Source: Candidatus Yanofskybacteria bacterium RIFCSPHIGHO2_01_FULL_44_22 | GTDB taxonomy: Bacteria; Patescibacteriota; Minisyncoccia; 2-02-FULL-40-12; GWA2-44-9 | Direction: 5' to 3' | Assembly: GCA_001794205.1 (NCBI GenBank) | Contig: MGJJ01000019.1 | Span: 1,353 to 65,352, forward strand | Length of the DNA: 64,000 nucleotides | Shown: positions 4,187 through 60,293 of the stretch, in pieces | How positions within the stretch are numbered: position 1 is the first letter of the stretch | Layout of the letters: every line of letters begins with the position of its first letter | Made by a program: the position numbers and the translations under genes | The notes under the pieces: model-generated | Database searches by the model: none | The model's input: the letters and a program-made list of their open reading frames with translations, nothing else | Told to the model about the DNA's origin: nothing

Positions 4187-5085
4187 AAATCGTAGTTACC
4201 GGCGGAGCGGGGTTTATCGGTTCTCATCTCGTAGATGCTCTCGTTGAGCGAGGGTTTAAGGTTCATGTAATTGACAATCTTTCCGGCGGGAAAAAAGAAA
4301 ATGTGAACAAGAAAGCCGTTCTCCATATCGCCGACATCCGCAATCTCAAAGAAATTAAACCTATCATCAGGGGCGCCGATTATGTTTTTCATCTTGCCGC
4401 CTTGCCGCGCGTTCAATATTCCATAGAAAATCCAGAAGAAACCCACGATGTAAATGTCAGCGGCACATTGAACGTTCTTTTGGCGGCTAAGGACGGCGGT
4501 GTCAAAAGAGTTATTTATTCCGCTTCAAGTTCGGCTTACGGCGACCAAAAAAGAATGCCCTTACTTGAAAATATGCCCGCCGCTCCTAAAAGTCCCTACG
4601 GTCTCCAAAAATATATCGGAGAATTATATTGCAGGCTTTTTTCGGAGGTTTACGGCCTGCCAACCGTTTCTTTGCGCTATTTCAATGTTTACGGTCCGAG
4701 ATTCAATCCCGAAGGGCCGTATGCTTTGGTAATCGGCAAGTTTATCCTCCAGCGCAAATTGGGCCAGCCGTTAACGATTACGGGCGACGGCAAACAGACC
4801 CGCGATTTTACTCATGTTTCCGATGTGGTGCTGGCGAATCTGTTGGCGATGGAAAGTAAAAAAGTCGGCCATGGTGAAGTGATGAATATAGGCGCTGGAA
4901 GCAACACCACAATCAACAAGTTGGCAAAATTAATCGGCGGTCAAAGTAAGCACATTGCGTTCCGCCTTGAACCCAAAAATACTCTTGCCGGCACCTCGTT
5001 GGCTTTTAAATTGTTGGGGTGGAAACCGCAAATTAAAACCGAAAACGGCATAAAACAACTTCTTCGCGAAGAGGGCCTGATATGA
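4183..5085 (+). CDS. NAD-dependent epimerase/dehydratase (UDP-sugar 4-epimerase-like)
   Basis: MKIVVTGGAGFIGSHLVDAL Rossmann start. YxxxK-type short-chain dehydrogenase/reductase (SDR) core (SPYGLQKYIGE). The ATGA start overlaps the upstream stop. Confidence 0.85.
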   Translation: MKIVVTGGAGFIGSHLVDALVERGFKVHVIDNLSGGKKENVNKKAVLHIADIRNLKEIKPIIRGADYVFHLAALPRVQYSIENPEETHDVNVSGTLNVLLAAKDGGVKRVIYSASSSAYGDQKRMPLLENMPAAPKSPYGLQKYIGELYCRLFSEVYGLPTVSLRYFNVYGPRFNPEGPYALVIGKFILQRKLGQPLTITGDGKQTRDFTHVSDVVLANLLAMESKKVGHGEVMNIGAGSNTTINKLAKLIGGQSKHIAFRLEPKNTLAGTSLAFKLLGWKPQIKTENGIKQLLREEGLI

Positions 5086-7154: not shown

Positions 7155-9920
7155 ATGAATTTTCTAAGCAAAATATTTGGAGACGCCAATGAGAGATATA
7201 TCAAATCGCTTCAGCCGATTGTCGTTCGAATAAACGGACTTGAGAAAGATTTTGAAAAACTTTCCGGCGAAGAACTAAAAAATAAAACGGCGGAATTTCG
7301 CAAACAATTAGCGGACGGCAAAACTCTTGACGCTCTCTTGCCCGAAGCGTTTGCGGCCGTCCGCGAGGCGTCAAAGCGTACGCTGAATCAGCGCCATTTT
7401 GACGTCCAACTGTTCGGCGGAATCGTCCTGCATCAAGGCAAAATTGCCGAAATGAAAACCGGCGAAGGCAAAACCCTTGTGGCGACGCTCCCGGCTTACC
7501 TGAATGCTATTACCGGCAAGGGTGTCCATATTGTTACAGTGAACGATTATCTTTCTCGTCGCGACGCCGTTTGGATGGGTCAGATTTACCACGCTCTCGG
7601 TTTGTCGGTGGGTTGTATCAACCACGATTCCAGTTTTTTATACGACCCCCGGCACAGCGAGAAAATACATGAATTGGAAAATAATAAATCCGACGCGCCT
7701 GTTCCAAGCCCCGAATCGGAAGAAGCGCTGTTGGACAAAGAAAGAGATTTGGCCGGCTCCTTTCACGTCGTTCACGAATTTTTAAGACCGGCAACGAGGA
7801 GAGACGCTTATGAGGCAGACATTACTTATGGCACCAACAACGAATACGGTTTTGATTATTTAAGGGACAATATGGCCTATGAATTGGCGGGCATAAGTCA
7901 ATCAAAGGGCCACCATTTTGCCATCGTTGACGAAGTTGATTCCATCCTTATTGACGAGGCTCGCACGCCCTTGATTATTTCGGCGCCGGACACGGAATCA
8001 ACCAAAATGTACGAGACATTTGCCAAAGTTGTGCCGAGATTGGTTGAAAATGACGATTATAATATTGATGAAAAATTAAAAGCTGTCTCAATTACCGAAA
8101 ACGGGATTGAAAAAGTGGAAAAAATGCTTGGCTTGAAAAATATTTACGAAGAAGGAGGCGTCAGAAACGTCCATCATTTGGAGCAAGCTCTAAAGGCGGA
8201 AATTTTATTCAAACGCGACAGGGATTACGTCGTAAAAGATGGAGAGGTGGTTATTGTGGATGAGTTTACCGGCCGGTTGATGCCCGGCCGGCGCTGGTCG
8301 GAAGGCCTTCATCAGGCGGTTGAAGCCAAAGAGGGGGTAAAAATAGAAAGAGAATCCCGCACTCTTGCCACCATTACTTTTCAGAATTATTTCCGCTTGT
8401 ACGATAAATTGGCGGGCATGACCGGAACCGCCCGGACTTCGGCCGAAGAGTTTCACAAAGTTTATAATCTCGGCGTGGTGGAAGTTCCCACGAATAAATT
8501 GATGATAAGAAAAAACGCGCCCGACAGGATTTATAAAACCGAGACCGGAAAATTTCGCGCCATTGTCAGGGAAATAAAAGAACGGCACGAAAAAGGCCAA
8601 CCGGTTCTTGTCGGCACCGTGTCAATAGAGAAAAACGAATTGCTTTCAGCTCTTTTGGGCCGTGAGGGGGTTCCTCATAATATTTTAAACGCGAAAAACC
8701 ACGAGAAAGAAGCTGAATTTATCGCCCAAGCCGGAAGATTATATTCGGTAACGGTGGCGACTAACATGGCCGGCCGGGGCGTGGATATAATTCTTGGAGG
8801 CACTCCTCCTGATGCTGGCGAGGCCAAAAAGGTTCGTGAAGCCGGAGGTCTGCATGTCATCGGCACCGAACGCCACGAGGCCAGGCGGATAGACGACCAG
8901 TTGCGCGGACGCGCCGGCCGGCAGGGCGACCCGGGTTCGTCCCAGTTTTTCATTTCAACCGAAGATGATTTGGCAAGAATATTCGGCGGAGACCGTTTGA
9001 AAAGAATTATGGAAACCTTGGGGGTAGGCGAGGACGATGTTATAGAAAACAGATTTGTTTCCAATGCCATTGGTCAGGCCCAGTCGCGGATTGAAGGCCA
9101 CAATTTTGATATTCGCAAATATGTCTTGGAATACGACGATGTAATGAACAAGCATCGCGAGGCGATTTACCGTCTGCGCAAAGATGTTTTATCGTCGGTG
9201 GGCAATAAAGAAAAAATATTGGAATATTTGGATAAACAGATTGAAAATATAGTAAATTTCCACACCCAAGGACAGGAGTATCAGTGGAACGTGGAAGAAA
9301 TCGCTGAATCGGTTAAAGCGCTGTCTGGTCTTGAATTGCATTCCGAACTTGTTGAAATCGCGAAAACCGGCAGTTCGGAAAAAGTGGGCGAATATCTCAA
9401 AACTCAAATTTCAAAACTTTATGAAGCAAAAGAGAAAGAACTTAACGCGGAAAATATGCGTCCCGAACGAAGCCGCGAGGGCACGCAGCGTGCTTCTGCT
9501 TCGTACGGGATGCGTCAGCTTGAGAAACTAGTTTTATTGAGAACGATTGACGAGTTGTGGATGGACCACATTGACGCGATGGAATATATGCGCGACTCGG
9601 TGCGTTTGAGGGCTTATGGCCAGAGGGACCCGCTGGTTGAATATAAAACAGAAGGCCACAAGATGTTTCAGCAATTAACCGGCGCGATTGAAGCGGAAGT
9701 GGCGAATTTGATATTCAAAGTCGGATTTTTTAATAAGCCCAAACAGGTAAAAACAGAAGAAGGCCGTCCAAATATAATTTCCGGCGAAGAAAACATGATT
9801 GAACAAGAATCCAGATTAAACTTAGACCAGCAACCGGTAGAAACTGAATCTAAAATCGGCAGAAATGAACTTTGTCCCTGTGGGTCGGGGAAGAAATATA
9901 AAAGGTGTCATGGGAAGTGA
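7155..9920 (+). CDS. secA: Preprotein translocase ATPase SecA
   Basis: Canonical SecA N-terminus (MNFLSKIFGDANERYIK). DEAD-like motor motifs (MKTGEGKTLVATLPAYLNA, IVDEVDSILIDEARTPLIIS). C-terminal zinc-binding tail (CPCGSGKKYKRCHG). The ATG at 7155 was chosen because the upstream ORF start overlaps the hpf terminator. Confidence 0.95.
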   Translation: MNFLSKIFGDANERYIKSLQPIVVRINGLEKDFEKLSGEELKNKTAEFRKQLADGKTLDALLPEAFAAVREASKRTLNQRHFDVQLFGGIVLHQGKIAEMKTGEGKTLVATLPAYLNAITGKGVHIVTVNDYLSRRDAVWMGQIYHALGLSVGCINHDSSFLYDPRHSEKIHELENNKSDAPVPSPESEEALLDKERDLAGSFHVVHEFLRPATRRDAYEADITYGTNNEYGFDYLRDNMAYELAGISQSKGHHFAIVDEVDSILIDEARTPLIISAPDTESTKMYETFAKVVPRLVENDDYNIDEKLKAVSITENGIEKVEKMLGLKNIYEEGGVRNVHHLEQALKAEILFKRDRDYVVKDGEVVIVDEFTGRLMPGRRWSEGLHQAVEAKEGVKIERESRTLATITFQNYFRLYDKLAGMTGTARTSAEEFHKVYNLGVVEVPTNKLMIRKNAPDRIYKTETGKFRAIVREIKERHEKGQPVLVGTVSIEKNELLSALLGREGVPHNILNAKNHEKEAEFIAQAGRLYSVTVATNMAGRGVDIILGGTPPDAGEAKKVREAGGLHVIGTERHEARRIDDQLRGRAGRQGDPGSSQFFISTEDDLARIFGGDRLKRIMETLGVGEDDVIENRFVSNAIGQAQSRIEGHNFDIRKYVLEYDDVMNKHREAIYRLRKDVLSSVGNKEKILEYLDKQIENIVNFHTQGQEYQWNVEEIAESVKALSGLELHSELVEIAKTGSSEKVGEYLKTQISKLYEAKEKELNAENMRPERSREGTQRASASYGMRQLEKLVLLRTIDELWMDHIDAMEYMRDSVRLRAYGQRDPLVEYKTEGHKMFQQLTGAIEAEVANLIFKVGFFNKPKQVKTEEGRPNIISGEENMIEQESRLNLDQQPVETESKIGRNELCPCGSGKKYKRCHGK
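9462..9509. mobile_element. 48-nt palindromic mini-element (MITE-like) inserted in-frame in secA, flanked by 6-bp direct repeat ATGCGT (9456-9461 and 9510-9515)
   Basis: Element cccgaacgaag...cttcgtacggg has an inner hairpin gcacgcagcgtgc. A near-identical copy lies in ruvA (27385-27432). It encodes PERSREGTQRASASYG inside an otherwise conserved SecA segment (NAENMR|QLEKLVLLRTIDELW). Confidence 0.6.
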
Positions 9921-10554: not shown

Positions 10555-11283
10555 TTGAACATGACAGCAAAAATCCAAAACACGATAAAAATATCCAGAA
10601 GTGGACTAAAATTATTTCTTGATTGCCCGAGGTGTTTTTGGCTGGATGTCCATCACAAGATAAAACGCCCGCCGGGATATCCGTATACTTTATCGGCGGC
10701 GGTGGATTATTTGGTGAAACAGGAATTTGACAAATATCGGGTGGACGGCAAGCTGCCGCCTGTTTTTGCGAAAGAAGAACTGGACGCAAAATTATTTTCC
10801 GGAGACAAACTGGCGGATTGGAGAAATAATTTTCGGGGCGTTTCATATTTTGATGAAAACCTGAACGCAATATTGTACGGCGCCGTTGATGATGTGCTTG
10901 AATTTTCCGACGGCTCTTTGGCGGTAGTTGATTATAAATCATCCGGTTCAAAAGAGATAACAATTTACGACGATTACCAAAAACAGATGGAGATTTATTC
11001 CTGGTTGTTGCAGAGAAACGGCTATCAAACCCAGCCCCACGCGTATTTTGTTTTTTATGTCGTCCAGAAAGACGGCGGCGGGTTTACCAATGTTTTGCCG
11101 TTCAGGGAAGAATTAAGGCGTGTTGACGTTAAACCTGATTGGGTCGGCGATACATTTGAAAGAGCGATAGAAACCGCGCGCCAGGAAACTGCGCCGGTAA
11201 ATTCCGACCATTGTGACCACTGTCATTATGTTGACCGGGTGGTAGAAGTTAGAGGGGCGATTCCTTGGGATAGCAATATTTAA
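10555..11283 (+). CDS. Cas4-like PD-(D/E)XK nuclease (RecB-family exonuclease fold with putative Fe-S Cys ligands)
   Basis: N-terminal Cys pair (CPRCFW). DxK motif (VVDYKSSGS). QxxxY-like motif (MEIYSWLL). C-terminal CDHCHY cysteines. This is the arrangement typical of Cas4/DUF83-type nucleases. Confidence 0.65.
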   Translation: MNMTAKIQNTIKISRSGLKLFLDCPRCFWLDVHHKIKRPPGYPYTLSAAVDYLVKQEFDKYRVDGKLPPVFAKEELDAKLFSGDKLADWRNNFRGVSYFDENLNAILYGAVDDVLEFSDGSLAVVDYKSSGSKEITIYDDYQKQMEIYSWLLQRNGYQTQPHAYFVFYVVQKDGGGFTNVLPFREELRRVDVKPDWVGDTFERAIETARQETAPVNSDHCDHCHYVDRVVEVRGAIPWDSNI

Positions 11284-11380
11284 AAACTCGAACTTTCACT
11301 ACCCGGTTGAAATGGCTTCCCAGCACAAAATTACGCCAGATTTAAACATTTAATTTTCCCCGTTTGTTCCATTCAACTCT

Positions 11381-11424
11381 TTTTCTATTATTTACCGTTC
11401 GTACGAACGGTAAATAATAGAAAA
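11381..11424. repeat. 44-nt perfect palindrome ttttctattatttaccgttc-gtac-gaacggtaaataatagaaaa (bidirectional terminator and/or operator)
   Basis: Read directly. It is flanked by T-run and A-run and shares arms (CTATTATTT) and core (TTCGTACGAA) with the palindrome at 12034-12088. Confidence 0.75.
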
Positions 11425-11495
11425 AGCGGAAGCGACTGTTCAAATATTCTGACATTCAAACAATGCTTGCGGAAACAATAAATGTTTAAAAATTC

Positions 11496-12029
11496 ATGAA
11501 AGAAAAATTTATTATTCAATTTTTAGAAGAATTGGTAAGTGCGCTTGGGGAGTTGAGTCGTTCTTTGAGCAGGATTTCTTATAAGGGATTCAGGTATAGC
11601 GATTTTAATACGAACTTGCTTGACCATGGTAAACGATACTCCGGTTTTAAAAATCTGGAACGGCGCGGCATTATAAGAAGAAAAAACGGCGATGAGTTTA
11701 TTTTTACAAAAAACGGGCAAAAGTGGTTTCAAGAATCGCATGCGCGATATTTTAAAAACAAAAACAACGGAAAATGGGACGGCAAGTGGCGAGTTGTGAT
11801 TTTTGACATTCCCCAAGAATTACACAAACAAAGAATAAAATTTCGGACAAAATTATTGAGCTTAGGCTTCAGCGCGTTGCAAAAGAGCGTTTTTGTTTTT
11901 CCTTATCCATGCGATAAGGAATTGGGGGACATATGTGAAAAGCTTGGTATAACTGATTATGTTGACAGGATTGTTGCCGAATCGATTGGTTTCTGCGAAT
12001 CGGGATTTCTTAAAAAATTTGGTTTATAG
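11496..12029 (+). CDS. PaaX-family-like transcriptional regulator (wHTH plus PaaX-type middle domain)
   Basis: WDGKWRVVIFDIPQELHKQRIKFRTKLLSLGFSALQKSVFVF resembles the PaaX WDGKW...GFG region. The N-terminal part is winged-helix-like. Confidence 0.6.
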   Translation: MKEKFIIQFLEELVSALGELSRSLSRISYKGFRYSDFNTNLLDHGKRYSGFKNLERRGIIRRKNGDEFIFTKNGQKWFQESHARYFKNKNNGKWDGKWRVVIFDIPQELHKQRIKFRTKLLSLGFSALQKSVFVFPYPCDKELGDICEKLGITDYVDRIVAESIGFCESGFLKKFGL

Positions 12030-12033
12030 CGTA

Positions 12034-12088
12034 ACACAATGTCCTATTATTTCTCTTTCGTACGAAAGAGAAATAATAGGACATTGTG
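12034..12088. repeat. 55-nt perfect palindrome cacaatgtcctattatttctctttcgtacgaaagagaaataataggacattgtg
   Basis: Read directly. Related to the 11381-11424 palindrome. It lies between the PaaX-like gene and the downstream nuclease gene. Confidence 0.75.
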
Positions 12089-13712: not shown

Positions 13713-15029
13713 ATGATAAATTCCCGGTTGCTAATCGGAATAATAATCATATCTCTTTTTCTTTTCGGTTTTGTTTTTCCCCAGGCCGTAAACAAGGGGG
13801 CCGATTTCGTTAATGGCAAAACGTCCCTCGGTTTGCCCCATTTTTGGAATATGCCGTTCCGTTTCGGTCTCGATTTGCTTGGCGGAACGCATCTTTTGTA
13901 CCAGGCCGACCTTTCGGCCATCGAGCAAAAATCAGAAGCCATGCAGGGGATACGGGATGTGATAGAACGAAGGGTGAATTTTTTCGGCGTGGCCGAACCG
14001 GTTGTCCAAATCCAGGGAGACGACCGCTTGGCGGTCGAATTGGCCGGCATAAAAAACGTCAATCAGGCAATCCGGCTTATCGGCGAGACGCCGTTCCTGG
14101 AATTCAAAGAAGAAAAGCCCGATACCCAGGCGATTCTGGAGGCCCAACAGAAAGGAGAACGGCTGAACGAGGAACCTTTTCAAAACACCGGTTTAAACGG
14201 CCGCCATTTGGCCAAAGCCCAGCTTGTTTTTGACCCCCAGACTTACGCGCCGGAAGTCAGTCTTGATTTGAATGAAGAAGGGGCTAAGCTGTTCGCGGAA
14301 CTGACCAAAAGAAACCTGAATAAAATCATAGCCATCTATCTTGACGGCCTTCCGATTTCAACGCCGGTTGTCCAATCGGAAATTCCCAACGGAAAGGCGA
14401 TTATCTCTGGCAAGTTTACTCCGGCGGAAGCCAAACTCCTTGCCACTCGCCTGAATTCCGGCGCCCTGCCGGTGCCGATAAAATTAATAAGTCAGCAGAC
14501 TATCGGCGCTTCGCTCGGAGCCGCTTCTCTGACCAAAAGCCTTAAGGCCGGCGTTTGGGGTTTGATTTTGGTCGGCGCGTTCATGATTTTTTTCTATCGT
14601 CTGCCCGGAATTGTTTCGGTGATTGCCCTCATTGTCTATGTGTTGATAGTTTTGACGATTTATAAATTGGTACCCGTCACGCTTACTCTGGCCGGCATTG
14701 CCGGTTTCATTTTGTCTTTGGGCATGGCCGTTGACGCCAATGTTCTGATTTTCGCCCGCATGCGGGAAGAGCTGAAGGCCGGGAAAAGTCTTAACCAGGC
14801 GACCCACGAAGGATTTTCCAGAGCTTGGCTCTCAATCCGCGACAGCCACATTACGACTTTCATCGGCGCCCTGGTTTTGTATTTGTTCACCACCTCAATC
14901 GTAAAAGGATTTGCTCTCACTTTGGGCATAGGCGTTCTTACCAGCCTGTTGACTGCCACGGTGGTAACGAGAAACTTTTTAAATTTGTTCATCGGGCAGA
15001 GATTCGAAAAAATAAGAAGGCTATTTTAG
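13713..15029 (+). CDS. secD: Protein translocase subunit SecD
   Basis: LGLDLLGGTHLLYQADLS periplasmic start and a C-terminal 6-TM bundle (GIAGFILSLGMAVDANVLIFARMREE). Confidence 0.9.
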   Translation: MINSRLLIGIIIISLFLFGFVFPQAVNKGADFVNGKTSLGLPHFWNMPFRFGLDLLGGTHLLYQADLSAIEQKSEAMQGIRDVIERRVNFFGVAEPVVQIQGDDRLAVELAGIKNVNQAIRLIGETPFLEFKEEKPDTQAILEAQQKGERLNEEPFQNTGLNGRHLAKAQLVFDPQTYAPEVSLDLNEEGAKLFAELTKRNLNKIIAIYLDGLPISTPVVQSEIPNGKAIISGKFTPAEAKLLATRLNSGALPVPIKLISQQTIGASLGAASLTKSLKAGVWGLILVGAFMIFFYRLPGIVSVIALIVYVLIVLTIYKLVPVTLTLAGIAGFILSLGMAVDANVLIFARMREELKAGKSLNQATHEGFSRAWLSIRDSHITTFIGALVLYLFTTSIVKGFALTLGIGVLTSLLTATVVTRNFLNLFIGQRFEKIRRLF

Positions 15030-15039
15030 AAATATCAAC

Positions 15040-15945
15040 ATGAAAGCAATTTATAAAATTATGTTTTTCTTTTCTCTGGCCCTGACGATAGCGGCTGTTT
15101 CGGCGGTTGTCGTTTTCGGATTGAATCTCGGTGTGGATTTCAAGGGCGGCAGCGTCATGGAGCTTAATTTTAGAAATGAAAGACCGGACATCGAAGACTT
15201 GCGGAAAGCAATATCGGATTGGACGGCGTTTAAAGATGCGGTTTTCAGTCCGGCCGGAGAAAACGGATTACTTATCAAGGGAGGCGAAATATCAGAGCAA
15301 ACCCACCAGGAAGTCATTCAAAAAATTGCAGCCGCGTTTCCTTCAGCCGGTTTGGAAGAGCAGAAGTTTGATTCGGTCGGTCCGGTAATCGGTTCCGAGC
15401 TTAAACGCAAAAGCGTATCCGCCATTTTTCTGGTCCTTGCGGCGATTATTGTTTACATTGCGATTGTGTTCAGAAAACTTTCGCGAACAATCTCCGGCTG
15501 GGCGATGGGACTGGCGGCGGTGGTTGCCCTGCTTCACGACATGCTTATTCCGGTCGGGGTTTTCGCTTTTCTCGGCCAGTATTACGGAGTGGAAATAAGC
15601 GCCGTATTCGTGGCGGCGGTTTTAACGATTTTAGGCTATTCGGTTTCCGATACCGTGGTGGTATTTGACAGGGTCAGAGAGAATATTATAAAACAGGGTG
15701 TGGGCGAGAGAGGCGAGGGATTCGGAGCGGTGGTTCACAAGAGCATACTTCAAACCCTCACCCGTTCTCTCAATACGACCTTTACCACTTTGCTTTCCTT
15801 GGTAGCCATTTATCTGTTCGGCGGCGAGAGTATAAGGTTTTTTGCCCTTGCCTTGATTATGGGAATTTTCCTGGGTGCCTATTCGTCAATCTTTGTGGCT
15901 TCTCCGCTCTTGATTTGGTGGAACAGGCGGACTGGCCGCCGGTAA
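15040..15945 (+). CDS. secF: Protein translocase subunit SecF
   Basis: GLNLGVDFKGGSVMEL start, SecF-type TM domain (GYSVSDTVVVFDRVREN), adjacent to secD. Confidence 0.9.
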   Translation: MKAIYKIMFFFSLALTIAAVSAVVVFGLNLGVDFKGGSVMELNFRNERPDIEDLRKAISDWTAFKDAVFSPAGENGLLIKGGEISEQTHQEVIQKIAAAFPSAGLEEQKFDSVGPVIGSELKRKSVSAIFLVLAAIIVYIAIVFRKLSRTISGWAMGLAAVVALLHDMLIPVGVFAFLGQYYGVEISAVFVAAVLTILGYSVSDTVVVFDRVRENIIKQGVGERGEGFGAVVHKSILQTLTRSLNTTFTTLLSLVAIYLFGGESIRFFALALIMGIFLGAYSSIFVASPLLIWWNRRTGRR

Positions 15946-26808: not shown

Positions 26809-27156
26809 TCAGTTTCGCCTTAAACTTGGCCAAACGCGCAAGGTCCTAATAGTATAAAGATATAAAAACAACGGGTTTATCTTATCATACTCGGCTTTTT
26901 TATGCAATTTTTTGTTTTTGGGAAAAAATTCTTTTAGTTCTTTGTAGAGCTGGGCGGCAAGAGTTTTGTTGTGGGAAATGACCAATGTCGGCCGGCCGTA
27001 ATTTTCTATTACTTTTGCCAAGGTGAATGTTTTACCGGAACCGGTTACGCCCAAAAGCACCTGGTGTTTTTTTCCGGATTTCAAACCCTCGGCCAGTTTA
27101 GTTATCGCGGCTGGTTGGTCGCCAGTAGGTTGATATTTTGATGAAAGTTTGAACAT
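26809..27156 (-). pseudogene. uvrB: N-terminal remnant (~90 codons) of excinuclease ABC subunit B (uvrB); reading frame diverges after FFPKN and terminates
   Basis: [24 protein letters not shown]...[44 protein letters not shown] matches the UvrB N-terminus. The expected AVEYFVSYYDYYQPEAY continuation is absent in all three frames. Confidence 0.7.
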
Positions 27157-27246: not shown

Positions 27247-27885
27247 ATGATTAGCTTTCTTGAGGGCAAAATTGAATACTTGGGGGACAAATTCGTCATT
27301 TTAAGCGCGGGGGGCATAGGATATAAGGTGAGTATAGTCCCCAATCTGCTGAATATTCTATCAAAAAGTCAAGCCGGGGTCAACCCCGAACGAAGTCGCG
27401 AGGGCACGCAGCGCGCCTCTACTTCGTACGGGGTCAATACCGTTAAAATGTTTATCCATTCCCAGCTAAATATGCGGGAAGGCACCTTTGATTTGTATGG
27501 GTTTGATAAAAAAGAAGATTTGGACCTGTTTAATACTCTAATTTCCGTTTCCGGCATCGGACCCAAAAACGCTCTTAACATCATGTCATCGGTGGAACCG
27601 AGGCATCTTAAGGCGGCGGTGGTCAATGATGATGCCGATTTTTTGAAAAAAGTTTCCGGCCTTGGCCCAAAAACCGCCCAAAGATTAATTTTGGAATTGA
27701 AAAATAAAGTTGATTATTTGGAAGATATTGACGGACTTGATTTGGGACAGGAGGGCCATGCCATGGAGGCTTTGCTTGCCCTTGGTTACAGCGCAAATCA
27801 GGCGAAAGATGTTCTCAAAGAAGCAAAAGGAGAGACGCTGGAGAATCGGGTGCGAGATGCGTTAAAAATTTTAGGGAAGAAATGA
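27247..27885 (+). CDS. ruvA: Holliday junction DNA helicase subunit RuvA (carrying an 18-aa in-frame mini-element insertion in domain I)
   Basis: MISFLEGKIEY start. HhH motifs (ISVSGIGPKNALNIMS, VSGLGPKTAQRLILELK). C-terminal RuvB-interaction helix (LALGYSANQAKDVLKE). The ATG at 27247 is preferred over the upstream ORF start. Confidence 0.85.
   Translation: MISFLEGKIEYLGDKFVILSAGGIGYKVSIVPNLLNILSKSQAGVNPERSREGTQRASTSYGVNTVKMFIHSQLNMREGTFDLYGFDKKEDLDLFNTLISVSGIGPKNALNIMSSVEPRHLKAAVVNDDADFLKKVSGLGPKTAQRLILELKNKVDYLEDIDGLDLGQEGHAMEALLALGYSANQAKDVLKEAKGETLENRVRDALKILGKK
27385..27432. mobile_element. Second copy of the 48-nt palindromic mini-element, in-frame in ruvA; flanked by direct repeat GGGGTCAA (27376-27383 / 27430-27437), total insertion 54 nt
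   Basis: cccgaacgaagtcgcgagggcacgcagcgcgcctctacttcgtacggg matches the secA copy at about 44 of 48 positions. It encodes PERSREGTQRASTSYG and duplicates codons G-V-N. Confidence 0.6.
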
Positions 27886-28859: not shown

Positions 28860-30163
28860 TGTTCAAAGAAGGTCTATTGGATAAAATTTTATATAAAGTT
28901 AAAAAGCTGATTCCGAAATCGGTTTTTAATTTTTTTGCACCGCTTTATCATGCCGGCTTAGCTTATGCCGGAGCGGTAATTTACGGGTTTCCGTCCCGTA
29001 AAATGAAAGTAATCGGCGTTACGGGAACCAAAGGCAAATCAACGACGGTGTTTTTAATAGCAAAAATTTTGGAAAATTCCGGCAAGAAAGTTGCCGCTAT
29101 CGGTTCGCTCGGATTTAAAATAAAAGAACGGGAATGGCCCAATACTTTGAAAATGACCATGCCGGGCCGTTTTAAATTGCAGAAATTTCTTCGGGAAGCC
29201 CGAAAGGCCGGCTGCAAATATGTCGTGTTGGAAGTCACCTCCGAGGGCATCAAACAGAAAAGACATCTTGGAATTAAATTTGACTGCGCCGTTTTTACGA
29301 ATTTGCATAAGGAACATATAGAAAACCACGGCTCCTTTGAAAATTACAGGAAAGCAAAAGAAGAACTGTTCAGGCTCACCCCAAACAATCATGTATTGAA
29401 TGCCGATGACGCATCGGTTGAACATTTCAGCAAGTACTCCGCCGATAAAAAAATACTCTTTGGAATAAAAGGCGGCGATATGAAAGCAAGCTGCATTGTC
29501 AGCGGCAAAATGGGCGTGGAATTTGAAATTTACGGCACCATGTTTAAAACCAAGCTCTTCGGCGAATTCAATGTTTATAATTGTTTGGCGGCGCTTTCCG
29601 TCGGGGCGGTTTACGGTCTTGATTTGCCGGCGATGAAACCGGCGATTGAAAGAATCGAGGAAATTCCCGGCCGAATGCAGTTTGTGCAAAAAGAGCCGTT
29701 TGCGGTAGTGGTGGATTATGCCCATACGCCGGACTCGCTGGAAAGCGTCTATAAAGCGCTTTCAAGTCCAAAACCTCAAAGGTTGATTTGCGTTTTGGGG
29801 GCGGCGGGAGGCGGGAGGGATAAGTGGAAAAGGCCGGAGTTCGGCAGAATCGCGAAAAAATATTGTGATGAAATAATATTAACAAATGAAGACCCGTACG
29901 ACGAGAACCCGCTTTCAATTTTAAAAGAAATTGAAAGCGGGTTCTCGCAATTACCAATTACCAATTACCAATTACCAAATTATGAAATAATTCTTGACCG
30001 GCGGGAGGCGATAAAAAAGGCGATAAACAACGCGGAAACGGGTGACACGGTGATTATTACCGGCAAAGGTTCGGAAACGTCCATAGCCGTGTCAGGTGGC
30101 AGAAGAATTCCCTGGTCTGACGCTCAAATCGTCCGGGAGCTGATTGACGCAGCCAGCCGATAG
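28859..30163 (+). CDS. Mur ligase family protein (MurE/MurT-like; central ATPase domain without a long N-terminal domain)
   Basis: P-loop KVIGVTGTKGKSTTVFLIA. Mur ligase middle domain (DYAHTPDSL) and C-terminal domain. Confidence 0.8.
   Translation: MFKEGLLDKILYKVKKLIPKSVFNFFAPLYHAGLAYAGAVIYGFPSRKMKVIGVTGTKGKSTTVFLIAKILENSGKKVAAIGSLGFKIKEREWPNTLKMTMPGRFKLQKFLREARKAGCKYVVLEVTSEGIKQKRHLGIKFDCAVFTNLHKEHIENHGSFENYRKAKEELFRLTPNNHVLNADDASVEHFSKYSADKKILFGIKGGDMKASCIVSGKMGVEFEIYGTMFKTKLFGEFNVYNCLAALSVGAVYGLDLPAMKPAIERIEEIPGRMQFVQKEPFAVVVDYAHTPDSLESVYKALSSPKPQRLICVLGAAGGGRDKWKRPEFGRIAKKYCDEIILTNEDPYDENPLSILKEIESGFSQLPITNYQLPNYEIILDRREAIKKAINNAETGDTVIITGKGSETSIAVSGGRRIPWSDAQIVRELIDAASR
29947..29980 (+). 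repeat. Heptanucleotide simple-sequence repeat (caattac)x4 plus partial copy, inside the Mur ligase coding region
   Basis: Read directly. It encodes LPITNYQLPNYEI. The unit length is not a multiple of 3. Confidence 0.85.
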
Positions 30164-30215: not shown

Positions 30216-30830
30216 ATGCCGGGGCGTTCATCCATTCGGGAGCTTCAGAAGTATTATTATTCGATTTTCGGAGACCGGTGCACGCTCGACCATATTATCC
30301 CCAAAAGCCGCAACGGTCCCCATAAAGAATTTAATTTGTTCCCTTTCGACAAAAACAGGCATCAGGCCTGGCATGCTCTTTTTTGGAACATGACCGTCTT
30401 TGAAGTCTGGGAACGACTGGGCGAAATTCATAATTTGATATTCAATTCGCCGACAAGCAGAATCAGACCGGTGTGGTTTGACGTTTGCAAATTGGAAAAA
30501 GGCGGTGTGAACAAAAGATTGGCATTTAAAGGTCTTAAAATAAAAGTCATCGCTAATCCCACGGACGTTAACGTTCTTAAGAAAAATTGGCTGTGTTGTT
30601 TTAAAAGTACAAAACTGGATGATGCCGTTAACTTTGTGGCGTACAAAATGCTGTTCATTATCTTCGGCAGAAAAGTGGCGGAGATGGCTCTGCCGGAAAA
30701 TAATGAAGATTTTTCAGGGATGATGAGAAACATAATTTCGGTTGACGTCAGAGCGTTGGAATGTCTGGGTGTTTTGGATATTCGGCTTCTGGAAAGAACC
30801 GCAAACGAGCTTACACGCAGATTCGCTTAG
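30216..30830 (+). CDS. HNH endonuclease domain protein (stand-alone)
   Basis: HNH core CTLDHIIPKSRNGPHKEFNLFPFDKNRHQAWH (Cys/Asp-His...Asn...His). The remaining ~140 aa are uncharacterised. Confidence 0.55.
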   Translation: MPGRSSIRELQKYYYSIFGDRCTLDHIIPKSRNGPHKEFNLFPFDKNRHQAWHALFWNMTVFEVWERLGEIHNLIFNSPTSRIRPVWFDVCKLEKGGVNKRLAFKGLKIKVIANPTDVNVLKKNWLCCFKSTKLDDAVNFVAYKMLFIIFGRKVAEMALPENNEDFSGMMRNIISVDVRALECLGVLDIRLLERTANELTRRFA

Positions 30831-30878: not shown

Positions 30879-31370
30879 GTGGAATCATACCCTCAACAAC
30901 CGCAGGCGGAGCTAACCGCCAGAAGGGAAAAGAAAATCCCGACTCTTAGCGGACCCGGAATTTTTTGGGTGTTTATTATCATTGTTCTGGTTTTAACGGC
31001 GGTTGCCATAAATTTGCTTGGCAATCCCGGAGGCGGGGACGGTTTGGCCTCCATCCCGCCGTCAATCGACGAAACTCCAGGCGAGACCAGACAGCCGAGA
31101 CTTTACACCGTTTCTTACCGGGCTGGCGTGTTTAGCCCCACCAATTTGAAAATACACTCCGGCGACACGGTGCGGTTCAAAAATGACGGCCTTTTGTCGA
31201 TACGAGTGGTTTCCGACCCTCATCCGGAACACAACAACCTTGTCGGTTTTGACAGTATCGGCGATATTCCGCAGGGAAGTTATTTCTCATTCACTTTCGC
31301 GGCTAAGGGAATTTTTGGATATCACAACGAAAAAAATATAAACGAAGCGGGAACGATAATAATAAGATAA
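30879..31370 (+). CDS. Hypothetical membrane-anchored protein with small beta-rich (cupredoxin-like) C-terminal domain, no Cu-ligand Cys
   Basis: N-terminal TM (IFWVFIIIVLVLTAVAI), Gly/Pro linker, beta-strand-like C-terminus. Weak assignment. Confidence 0.35.
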   Translation: MESYPQQPQAELTARREKKIPTLSGPGIFWVFIIIVLVLTAVAINLLGNPGGGDGLASIPPSIDETPGETRQPRLYTVSYRAGVFSPTNLKIHSGDTVRFKNDGLLSIRVVSDPHPEHNNLVGFDSIGDIPQGSYFSFTFAAKGIFGYHNEKNINEAGTIIIR

Positions 31371-39317: not shown

Positions 39318-39420
39318 CCGCTTCGCTTTGCCTCCTCCTGCATTTTCCATGCTTCGAAGCATCCTACAACCTCCTCCGCGCTTCGGAGCGCCGTCTTTTT
39401 TCAATCTGCTCGGCCGTTTA

Positions 39421-39462
39421 GGATAAACAAGGGATTTCTTGCAAGAAATCCCTTGTTTATCC
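39421..39462. repeat. 42-nt perfect palindrome ggataaacaagggatttctt-gcaagaaatcccttgtttatcc nested inside an 11-bp inverted repeat (gccgtcttttt 39390-39400 / aaaaagacggc 39483-39493)
   Basis: Read directly. It lies in a 325-nt noncoding region that also holds a 14-nt palindrome atgcttcgaagcat (39348-39361) and the hairpin gcgcttcggagcgc (39378-39391). Confidence 0.8.
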
Positions 39463-39643
39463 TGGCCTGCGAGAACTTATTCAAAAAGACGGCACATCCT
39501 CCGCCGGTTGATTGTGTAAGTGGCTGATGCTTGAGCGAGAAAGGTCAAACGAATCAATACATCCGAGGCACTTGAGAAGGTGAGGAGGGGGCAAGAAAAT
39601 GGGGCGGAGCGGTGATTGAGTAAAATCATGCTATAATAATTCC

Positions 39644-59399: not shown

Positions 59400-60293
59400 A
59401 TGCGTCCGGCTGACATCAAAACCATACGTGAAAGGAGTGATTTTGGGCGCCGCGCAAGGCGTCCGTTTATTTTTTGGCTCGCGGCAGTCGGAGCTTTGGC
59501 GCTGGCCGCCTCCGCGGTTCATATTCTTTTCTTTGCCGATATCCTGCGGATACAAACAGTTTCAATATCGGAAAACGGCCGGATATCAGAAAGCTCCGAC
59601 GGTAAAGCCATTTTGGCTGCGATAAATTCGGTTCTGGAAGAAAAAAAAATCGGCTTTTTAAAAATTGCGGAAAACATCCTGTTTTTTGACAGGTCGGCAA
59701 CGGAGAAACAATTATCGGAAGACTTGCTCTTTATAAAAAACATAAAAATAAACAAGCTATTTCCGCATGGGTTGGCCGTTGAGTTTTCTAAAAAAATTCC
59801 AATTGGCGTCTGGTGTTTTAAAGATGGCGGCTGCCGGTATTTTGACGCGGCCGGCTCAATGTGGGGAGAAGCAGAAAAATCTTCAGGATTTCTCCTGTTG
59901 TCGGTAGATGATTTGCGAAACGGCGGCAATACCGCAAAAAGCGCCGCGGTCGATGCCGCTTTTTTTATGCCGCTTCTTAAAATTAATGAATATTTGCCGG
60001 CGGTGAACCTTAAAATTAAAAATGCGGAGATTCCGGAAAATTCACTTGGCGAATTTAAGGTTTTTACCGACAAAAATTATTTTCTGTTTTTTGATGCCGG
60101 TTCGACCAACTCACGGCAAGCCGGTTCGACCAACTCACGGCAAGCCGGTTCGACCAACTCACGGCAAGCCGGTTCCGACATCGCCGGCCAGCTGGAAAGT
60201 TTAAAGATGTTGCTGGAAGAGCGGGGAAAAGACACCGGTTTCAACCCTCAATATATAGACTTAAGGATTGGGGGAAGAATTTATGTAAAATGA
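59400..60293 (+). CDS. Membrane-anchored hypothetical protein, possibly FtsQ/DivIB-like (POTRA), carrying an octapeptide tandem repeat
   Basis: Basic N-terminus, single TM (PFIFWLAAVGALALAASAV), beta-rich ectodomain. The FtsQ assignment is weak. Confidence 0.4.
   Translation: MRPADIKTIRERSDFGRRARRPFIFWLAAVGALALAASAVHILFFADILRIQTVSISENGRISESSDGKAILAAINSVLEEKKIGFLKIAENILFFDRSATEKQLSEDLLFIKNIKINKLFPHGLAVEFSKKIPIGVWCFKDGGCRYFDAAGSMWGEAEKSSGFLLLSVDDLRNGGNTAKSAAVDAAFFMPLLKINEYLPAVNLKIKNAEIPENSLGEFKVFTDKNYFLFFDAGSTNSRQAGSTNSRQAGSTNSRQAGSDIAGQLESLKMLLEERGKDTGFNPQYIDLRIGGRIYVK
60107..60189 (+). repeat. 24-nt tandem repeat (ccggttcgaccaactcacggcaag) x3.4, encoding (GSTNSRQA)n in-frame
   Basis: Read directly. 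Three perfect copies plus a partial one. Confidence 0.9.

Follow-up and report, generated by a model that had tools for sequence, protein, structure and literature searches.

The secA gene of Candidatus Yanofskybacteria bacterium RIFCSPHIGHO2_01_FULL_44_22 (contig MGJJ01000019.1, assembly GCA_001794205.1) contains a palindrome of 48 nucleotides (nt) between two copies of ATGCGT, and the question is how a hairpin came to lie inside an essential gene with the reading frame intact. The gene was studied within a stretch of 64,000 nt of this contig, referred to below as the window. The segment is probably one copy of a tiny transposable element that is non-autonomous and hairpin-shaped, has the anatomy of a miniature inverted-repeat transposable element (MITE) and behaves like the Rickettsia palindromic elements (RPEs). 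A repeat family with terminal inverted repeats, target duplications, nested copies, empty and filled alleles, a bias for one reading frame and a location in protein loops was observed directly. The movement of the element by an enzyme acting in trans and its translation within the host protein are inferred.

The insert in secA and its empty site

The sequence from 9456 to 9515 reads ATGCGT-CCCGAACGAAGCCGCGAGGGCACGCAGCGTGCTTCTGCTTCGTACGGG-ATGCGT, with CCCGAACGAAGCCGCGAGGGCACGCAGCGTGCTTCTGCTTCGTACGGG at 9462-9509, exactly as described in an earlier note on this DNA. Element and duplication together form a unit of 54 nt (18 codons), which is in frame in an open reading frame (ORF) of 921 amino acids (aa). 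In the protein (...ELNAENMR-PERSREGTQRASASYG-MRQLEKLVLLRTIDELWMDH...) the sequence MRQLEKLV resumes after PERSREGTQRASASYG. The direct repeat around the element is 7 nt long (ATGCGTC, 9456-9462 and 9510-9516) and has a period of 54 nt. The imperfect terminal inverted repeats, complementary at 10 of 11 positions, and the inner hairpin GCACG-CAG-CGTGC were likewise present as the earlier note had reported. The 60-nt unit folded into one long hairpin of -35.8 kcal/mol (z = -4.3), and none of 200 shuffled sequences was as stable. The element has a GC content of 67% in a genome of 44% GC. Rfam identified only one tRNA in the window and gave no family match at the element. In an alignment with SecA of B. 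subtilis, the insertion point falls in the wing/scaffold region just ahead of the conserved MR-EFEKVIVLR helix.

The related contig L040 was 99.79% identical to the window over 10.9 kb, and its sole indel was the absence of exactly these 54 nt (GAAAAT-ATGTGT-CAGCTT). In the 90%-identity SecA cluster, ten of the 12 distinct same-species sequences were empty and two were filled. The second filled allele (L066) came from an independent Joint Genome Institute (JGI) assembly, in which the same 54 nt are linked to another downstream haplotype that has 16 private single-nucleotide polymorphisms (SNPs) in 90 nt. Because two independent assemblies with different linked haplotypes carry the same insert, it is real, and an assembly artefact, which the earlier note had allowed for, was not borne out. 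The 18 aa had also been suspected to be specific to the lineage or strain. Nothing was present at this position in 116 of the 120 closest SecA orthologues, and the other four hold a different member of the family there. The SNPs between the window and L040 within secA formed three tight clusters, at 9513-9530 (adjoining the insert on its right side), 8751-8769 and 9734-9776. This distribution indicates short recombination tracts and a region that is a recombination mosaic. The secA copy is a recent insertion, which is segregating in the population and is shuttled between haplotypes by homologous recombination.

A repeat family with common termini

To survey the family, the genome and the metagenome collections were each scanned once, and the termini were then searched for locally. 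Family termini were present at about 15 distinct sites, with cores making elements of 45, 48, 60, 69, 72 and 114 nt. The family occurs in Candidatus Yanofskybacteria and its relatives within the Candidate Phyla Radiation (CPR)/Patescibacteria. Exact matches of its proteins placed the window itself in groundwater metagenomes (Rifle and others), on contigs of Candidatus Yanofskybacteria. The further copies that the earlier note had proposed to look for were thus found in related genomes, in obg, at the rpsA start codon, at other SecA sites, at the 3' end of the 23S rRNA gene and in spacers. All positions are compiled in Table 1.

Table 1. Features of the secA and ruvA copies in the window, sites left empty in the window, and family members in related genomes
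Feature	Position	Strand	Remarks
secA host gene, 921 aa from ATG at 7155	7155..9920	+	SecA Pfam domains in all matches; identical to NCBI OGN04948.1
secA target duplication, left copy, 5 bp, ATGCG	9456..9460	+	Empty allele L040 has a single ATGTG here
secA mini-element, 5' pyrimidine (T) plus 48-nt hairpin	9461..9509	+	Sole indel relative to the 99.79%-identical contig
Left terminal inverted repeat CCCGAACGAAG	9462..9472	+	In all subfamilies; covaries with right repeat
Inner core hairpin GCACG-CAG-CGTGC	9481..9493	+	Helix 2, 88.8% of cells paired
Right terminal inverted repeat CTTCGTACGGG	9499..9509	+	In all subfamilies; covaries with left repeat
secA target duplication, right copy, 5 bp, ATGCG	9510..9514	+	
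ruvA host gene, 212 aa from ATG at 27247	27247..27885	+	
ruvA target duplication, left copy, GTCAA	27379..27383	+	
Second mini-element copy (C plus 48 nt)	27384..27432	+	In frame in a loop of the ruvA OB-fold
ruvA target duplication, right copy, GTCAA	27433..27437	+	
Unoccupied target GATTGAC, single copy	30142..30148	+	L012 has a 48-nt member here with GTTGAC on both sides
Unoccupied start-codon region GTGGAA of 163-aa gene	30879..30884	+	L012 has a 180-nt composite member between two ATGGAT
48-nt type, secA			In the window; three further SecA sites in other lineages (L032, L041, L043)
48-nt type, ruvA			
48-nt type, obg			L016, L031, L036, L037
48-nt type, exactly at rpsA start codon			L027, L038
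48-nt type, 23S rRNA 3' end	L034 2813-2860		Immediately before 5S; ATGAA duplication; match to the Rfam LSU model stops within the element, at 2855
48-nt type, directly 3' of stop codon of MurE-like gene			L012
48-nt type, intergenic spacer			Saccharibacteria metagenome-assembled genome (MAG), L008
45-nt type, nested in loop of a 48-nt member in SecA gene	L032 292-390		Hainich groundwater contig
60-nt type, nested in 114-nt member			At start codon of 163-aa gene (L012)
69-72-nt two-hairpin type			Both orientations at the window's own secA site (L042, L044); ruvA site in another lineage (L048)

The consensus termini of 11-12 nt, CCCG(A/T)(A/T)(C/A)GAAG...CTTC-K-WW-CGGG, enclose a variable core that is itself palindromic. 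Five different, unrelated cores were bounded by CCCGAACGAAG...CTTCGT(A/T)CGGG or by the covarying pairs CCCGTTAGAAG/CTTCTAACGGG and CCCGAACGAGG/CCTCGTACGGG. Among ten 48-nt copies, five of the 12 terminal pairs had changed on both sides. The pairing of the termini amounted to 91.5% of cells, compared with 32-46% when the partners were slid. Nesting was also seen within a protein-coding context, where the pair in L032 (..AGSGVH-..-VHIVTVNDY) adds 35 residues to the nucleotide-binding domain of SecA. The secA (ATGCG) and ruvA (GTCAA) sites are hotspots at which other subfamilies occur in other lineages, and the window represents the empty state for two elements of its relative L012.

The length of the target duplication was determined from 12 sites with intact flanks. 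The first five flanking bases (those adjoining the right end, compared with positions -6 to -2 at the left) matched in 59 of 60 cases, and the sixth matched at only three of the 12 sites. The duplications were ATGCG (3 sites), ATGAA (3), GTCAA (2), ATGGA, ACAAG, GTTCA and G/ACACG. The base just before CCCG was always a pyrimidine, which equalled the base after the right repeat in only three of the 12 cases. As the sixth base matches so rarely, the duplication of the family is best read as 5 bp (R-Y-N-N-R) plus one pyrimidine carried at the 5' end of the element. The earlier note had given a 6-bp duplication, ATGCGT. A direct repeat is present, but a 6-bp duplication was rejected in favour of 5 bp after the 12 sites had been compared, and the 6-bp (really 7-bp) repeat in secA is partly coincidence.

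Other searches returned little. No exact match to the termini was obtained in viral contigs. Degenerate termini gave 16 hairpins there, none of them in an ORF, and most resemble ordinary terminators; two (L050 and L054, CCCGTTAGAAG...CTTCTAACGGG) might be relatives. A search for the PERSREGTQRASASYG peptide with a 48-aa concatenate as query against 5.8 billion proteins yielded one candidate and no match. Full-text literature searches on CPR, Patescibacteria or Parcubacteria together with MITEs or with palindromic, in-frame or intragenic elements gave no description of this kind.

The copy in ruvA

A near-identical copy had been reported in ruvA at 27385-27432 and was present there, in frame, in a protein reading ...SQAGVN-PERSREGTQRASTSYG-VNTVKMF.... 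It differed from the secA copy at four of 48 positions, and one pair of differences (positions 12 and 37, C-G versus T-A) is compensatory. The 60-nt unit folded with a z score of -4.75, and again none of 200 shuffles was as stable. The left 29 nt of the element matched twice in the window, compared with 0.00 matches expected from 100 shuffles. An nhmmer profile of the ten 48-nt copies detected no extra copy, not even a degenerate one, in the window or the related loci.

The ruvA copy was present in at least 10 independent contigs. It occurred in all same-species contigs and also in a relative about 91% identical in ruvA (10% differences outside the element). Since it is common to this relative, the ruvA copy is judged older than the secA copy. 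The earlier note's description of a recent insertion thus fits secA, where an empty allele differs by the 54 nt alone, but not ruvA. None of the 48 positions of the ruvA element had changed between lineages whose ruvA genes are otherwise 10% different (P = 0.006).

Solved RuvA structures jump from residue 39 to residue 44 where RuvA of the window has 29 residues. In an AlphaFold2 model calculated from a 60-sequence alignment, the RuvA fold was kept at moderate confidence, with a mean predicted local distance difference test (pLDDT) score of 64.8. Residues 42-63 were unstructured (pLDDT <50), and the insert, which had no secondary structure, came to lie in domain I, with a helix on one side and a strand on the other. 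The RuvA protein of the source MAG is deposited as 'hypothetical protein'.

Reading frame and tolerated loops

The units of element plus duplication measured 51, 54, 66, 75, 78 and 120 nt, all multiples of three, and this rule also held for the two types seen only in non-coding DNA. All seven independent intragenic copies of the 48-nt type agreed in orientation and reading frame (p ~2e-5, given the first). The frame used is the most hydrophilic of the six (grand average of hydropathicity -1.7) and encodes PERSREGTQRAS(A/T)SYG, a peptide that is free of hydrophobic residues and of Cys and has Pro and Gly at its ends. Across SecA (at least four sites), RuvA, Obg and the S1 N-terminus it reads P-E/V-R-S/G-R-E-G-T/S-Q-R-A-S-x-S-Y/F/N-G. 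Intragenic copies of the other subfamilies also used the phase that reads CCC and GGG as codons, with the nested 45-nt copy as the sole exception. Non-coding copies occurred in either orientation relative to their neighbours. Freedom from stop codons in all six frames was considered as a design feature and rejected as strong evidence. Some 9% of composition-matched shuffles were equally free of stops, and one frame of the ruvA copy contains a stop. The base content of the arms accounts for this freedom, as the left arm has no T and the right arm almost no A.

The sites of insertion are permissive loops. Of the 120 RuvA orthologues closest to that of the window, some had nothing in the loop following ..SKSQxxVN, such as the forms of 193-199 aa (P0126, 84% identical), and others held many different inserts of 10-40 aa there. 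Two of these insert types (48-nt and 69-nt) were proven to be family members at the DNA level, and the insert in L049, examined in the same way, had no family termini. SecA and RuvA orthologues also carried other lineage-specific in-frame inserts of 8-40 aa with unrelated sequences (NSKFLISK / NPKSQILN.., SFAKATAGK.., GRSAEQSEAQ..). Some of them show two-codon duplications, and one SecA example (P0003) reads 'AV-PPATALGGAPLK-AV'. This suggests that further families of coding mini-elements may exist in the clade.

Origin of the insert

The element would be mobilised in trans by a transposase-type enzyme making 5-bp staggered cuts. Insertion duplicates 5 bp of the target and leaves one pyrimidine at the 5' end of the element. 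In a gene this adds 17-26 residues bounded by Pro and Gly, with no frameshift or stop, because the unit is a multiple of three and the CCC/GGG-codon phase is open. Selection would retain only those insertions that fall in permissive surface loops and, among copies of the 48-nt type, only those whose orientation and frame yield the most hydrophilic peptide; the outcome would be in-frame inserts in essential genes, translated as part of the host protein. An end-recognising enzyme fits because identical termini stand on different cores, the duplication is of fixed length, copies are nested and sites are found empty as well as filled. The earlier note had seen a resemblance to a very small MITE that entered essential genes without breaking the frame. 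Termini, duplication and mobility support that view, but copies also lie outside genes, several subfamilies exist and a transposase was not found.

Several observations weigh against this explanation. The precomputed Pfam annotation of about 51 kb of the window contained no transposase, and no autonomous element with family termini was found in the window or in a further 190 kb or so of related loci, the collection scans having been aimed only at the mini-element. Some copies (L008, L041) had no recognisable duplication, and in the L003/L012 lineage the ruvA copy is flanked by GTCAAC/GTTGAC, an inverted and not a direct repeat. The number of copies per genome looks low, with two in the 64-kb window and at least six in the RIFOXYD1_FULL_42_10 MAG, which is unlike many MITEs. 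The unchanged ruvA element implies an extra constraint or conversion between copies. As SNPs cluster beside the secA insert, this allele may have arrived by homologous recombination and not by fresh transposition in this strain.

A hairpin might also have been inserted without a transposase, by template switching, hairpin-primed repair or gene conversion, with the flanking repeats as repair microhomologies. The failure to find a transposase would agree with this, as would the fact that the entire element and not just its ends is a hairpin. The undiverged ruvA copy suggests conversion between copies, the SNP clusters beside the secA insert point to recombination, and other perfect palindromes in the window, one of them in native coding sequence (29902-29947), suggest that palindrome-generating processes may be active. 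Microhomology-mediated events would, however, yield repeats of variable length, and here the flanking repeat was a constant 5 bp at 12 sites of unrelated sequence. The same termini were found on unrelated cores, insertions were nested, and many unrelated targets including the 23S 3' end were hit. These four features are the signature of an end-recognising enzyme, and insertion without a transposase is considered unlikely. It is slightly less likely again that the segment was retained for its use, either as an RNA hairpin in mRNA stabilisation, termination or regulation, or as a peptide loop making a new interaction, a role that would be compatible with a mobile origin. The slower evolution of the element than of its host gene in ruvA, three G-U pairs on the sense strand, and copies at the start codons of rpsA and the 163-aa gene are consistent with such a function. 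The Saccharibacteria copy L008 lies between two genes, is followed by a T-run on the transcribed strand and looks terminator-like by eye, but the terminator scan did not call it, and this role was discarded. The secA insert is moreover a minority allele absent from nearly all orthologues, the host proteins have unrelated functions, disorder is predicted for the peptide, and there is no match to an Rfam family.

That the insert is missing from the protein, either because ribosomes hop over the hairpin between identical codon pairs (ATG CGT ... ATG CGT) or because the RNA is excised, is very improbable. Matching 'take-off' and 'landing' codons do surround the stable hairpin, the element is mobile and GC-rich, and mobile bypass elements are known to exist. 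The matching codons are, however, produced automatically by the target duplication, and the match is lost in older copies (L003 ruvA GTCAAC/GTTGAC; L041, no repeat). The units are all divisible by three in length and the used frame is always open, neither of which is typical of bypass elements, and no stop codon follows the take-off codon. The confinement of intragenic copies to the one frame with the most benign peptide makes sense only if they are translated. An artefact of assembly or sequencing, for example a fold-back chimera, is effectively refuted. Perfect palindromes do occur elsewhere in the window, one of them in a segment missing at the end of another contig, but both the NCBI MAG and a separate JGI assembly, whose linked haplotype differs, contain the same 54 nt. 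The ruvA copy also recurred in independent contigs, and in-frame members with target duplications came from many assemblies made with different assemblers. An intein or self-splicing intron was rejected, since the insert comprises just 18 aa or 54 nt without an Rfam match, an intein needs about 130 aa or more with C/S/T at +1, and an intron needs a catalytic RNA fold. A transposable element moved in trans is thus the preferred explanation of the secA segment.

An HNH-like gene of 204 aa (30216-30830) was considered as the mobiliser and is no more than a weak lead. Its match to Pfam HNH (E = 0.004) was below the cut-off, and it was present beside filled and empty sites alike. The protein is conserved at 204-216 aa with the motif DH..P.S....N....N.H..WH, and in L012 its gene (4257-4907) is bracketed by two family members.

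Comparison with known systems

RPEs are palindromic repeats of about 100-150 bp that lie in frame in many unrelated genes (Ogata et al. 2000, summarised in PMC10969869), and they are the closest functional counterpart. Both are palindromic repeats of a bacterium with a small genome and without a known transposase, and both have repeatedly entered unrelated, often essential genes in frame, each time adding a conserved peptide. Both also occur in non-coding and RNA-gene contexts, and their inserts are compatible with the fold of the host protein. The Yanofskybacteria family is nevertheless not a member of the RPE families (RPE-1 to RPE-10). There is no sequence similarity, the phylum is different, and the elements are shorter (45-72 nt, 18 aa for the secA copy). 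They have clear terminal inverted repeats of 11-12 nt and a 5-bp duplication, and one copy is demonstrably polymorphic within a population.

Bacterial MITEs such as Correia/NEMIS, ERIC, RUP, BOX and SPRITE have been reviewed (PMC10969869). Like these, the Yanofskybacteria elements are short (45-114 nt) and non-autonomous, encode only a read-through peptide and no transposase of their own, and share terminal inverted repeats and a fixed 5-bp duplication, which is degraded in two or three old copies. The copies are dispersed and nested and show presence/absence polymorphism; some MITEs (SPRITE) also form terminator-like hairpins. In contrast to MITEs, the element is at or below the usual lower size limit, the whole of it is a hairpin, the unit lengths are all multiples of three and its presence in essential genes is strong. 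No parent insertion sequence (IS) was identified and the copy number looks low. With the exception of these last two points, the family qualifies as a MITE by its anatomy.

Two other groups are more distant. Repetitive extragenic palindromes and bacterial interspersed mosaic elements (REP/BIME) are extragenic palindromes of 20-40 nt with a 5' GT(A/G)G tetranucleotide and no target duplication, and they are mobilised by RAYT, an IS200/IS605-like Y1 enzyme. The present elements are similar in size, form hairpins and are GC-rich, but they occur inside genes, have a 5-bp duplication and begin with (Y)CCCG instead of a GTAG head. No Y1 transposase was contained in the Pfam lists covering about 51 kb of the window. 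The coding gap of T4 gene 60 and the 'byps' of Magnusiomyces mitochondria are inserts that interrupt the frame and must be skipped. They too are short GC-rich mobile inserts (27-55 nt) in essential genes, form hairpins and have identical codons on both sides. The Yanofskybacteria inserts differ in that they keep the frame, are open and survive in a frame-specific manner, and for these reasons they are most likely translated. The family is a new, unusually small palindromic repeat of the MITE/RPE type that inserts in frame.

Other palindromes and repeats in the window

Two perfect palindromes without spacer, at 11379-11426 (48 nt) and 12035-12088 (54 nt), flank a PaaX_M/Cas2-like ORF of 177 aa (11496-12029), and a gene of the PD-(D/E)xK family (10555-11283) lies just upstream of the pair. 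The pair was also present in L040 and L066. In L045, from a different species, palindromes occupied the same two positions (14556-14595 and 15152-15211) with the same centre, TCGTACGA, and other arms. Since the arms differ at the same positions, palindromy is kept while the sequence diverges. At 29902-29947, arms of 20 nt are perfectly complementary around a 6-nt spacer within native MurE-like coding sequence (..ENPLSILKEIESGFS..); by chance, far fewer than one such case would be expected. The orthologue in L012 does not differ in length, so the palindrome is coding sequence and not an insertion. A perfect palindrome of 44 nt (39420-39463) lies in an intergenic segment of 153 nt (39401-39553) that is missing from L004, whose contig ends nearby; the difference may be genuine or caused by the contig end.

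Two genes, MreC (at about 53126) and the ORF 59400-60293 (at 60060-60143), contain the same in-frame unit of 24 nt, GCCGGTTCGACCAACTCACGGCAA (variant GTTCGACAAGCTCACGGCAAGCCG). Its tandem copy number varied between near-identical strains (window compared with L046/L047). The uvrB gene of the window is a 115-aa N-terminal remnant (26809-27156, minus strand), and the relative L003 has the complete gene (666 aa). The window also lacks, at about 20186, a 718-nt segment with a D-Ala-D-Ala ligase that L002 and L004 possess. Both observations indicate gene loss at the strain level.

Implications

It is possible, though rather doubtful, that families of coding hairpins of 45-180 nt, mobilised by an enzyme not yet recognised and possibly not a classical DDE transposase, repeatedly strike the same permissive loops across CPR/Patescibacteria and are a main source of lineage-specific insertions in CPR proteins and rRNAs. 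This wider idea arises from the RuvA and SecA alignments, in which one RuvA loop is empty in some lineages and holds dozens of different inserts elsewhere. As far as the family itself is concerned, essential single-copy genes of ultra-small CPR genomes (secA, ruvA, obg, rpsA and 23S rRNA) appear to have been colonised by a selfish element, which would evade purifying selection by being frame-neutral, open and hydrophilic. It would be a second, independent example of the phenomenon known from Rickettsia, much smaller and anatomically cleaner and with one copy still polymorphic. The family offers a candidate mechanism by which some of the so far unexplained insertions that give CPR proteins and rRNAs their unusual look could have arisen, and such inserts can distort alignments, phylogenies and annotation. 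It also provides a natural experiment on which protein loops tolerate 18 added residues.

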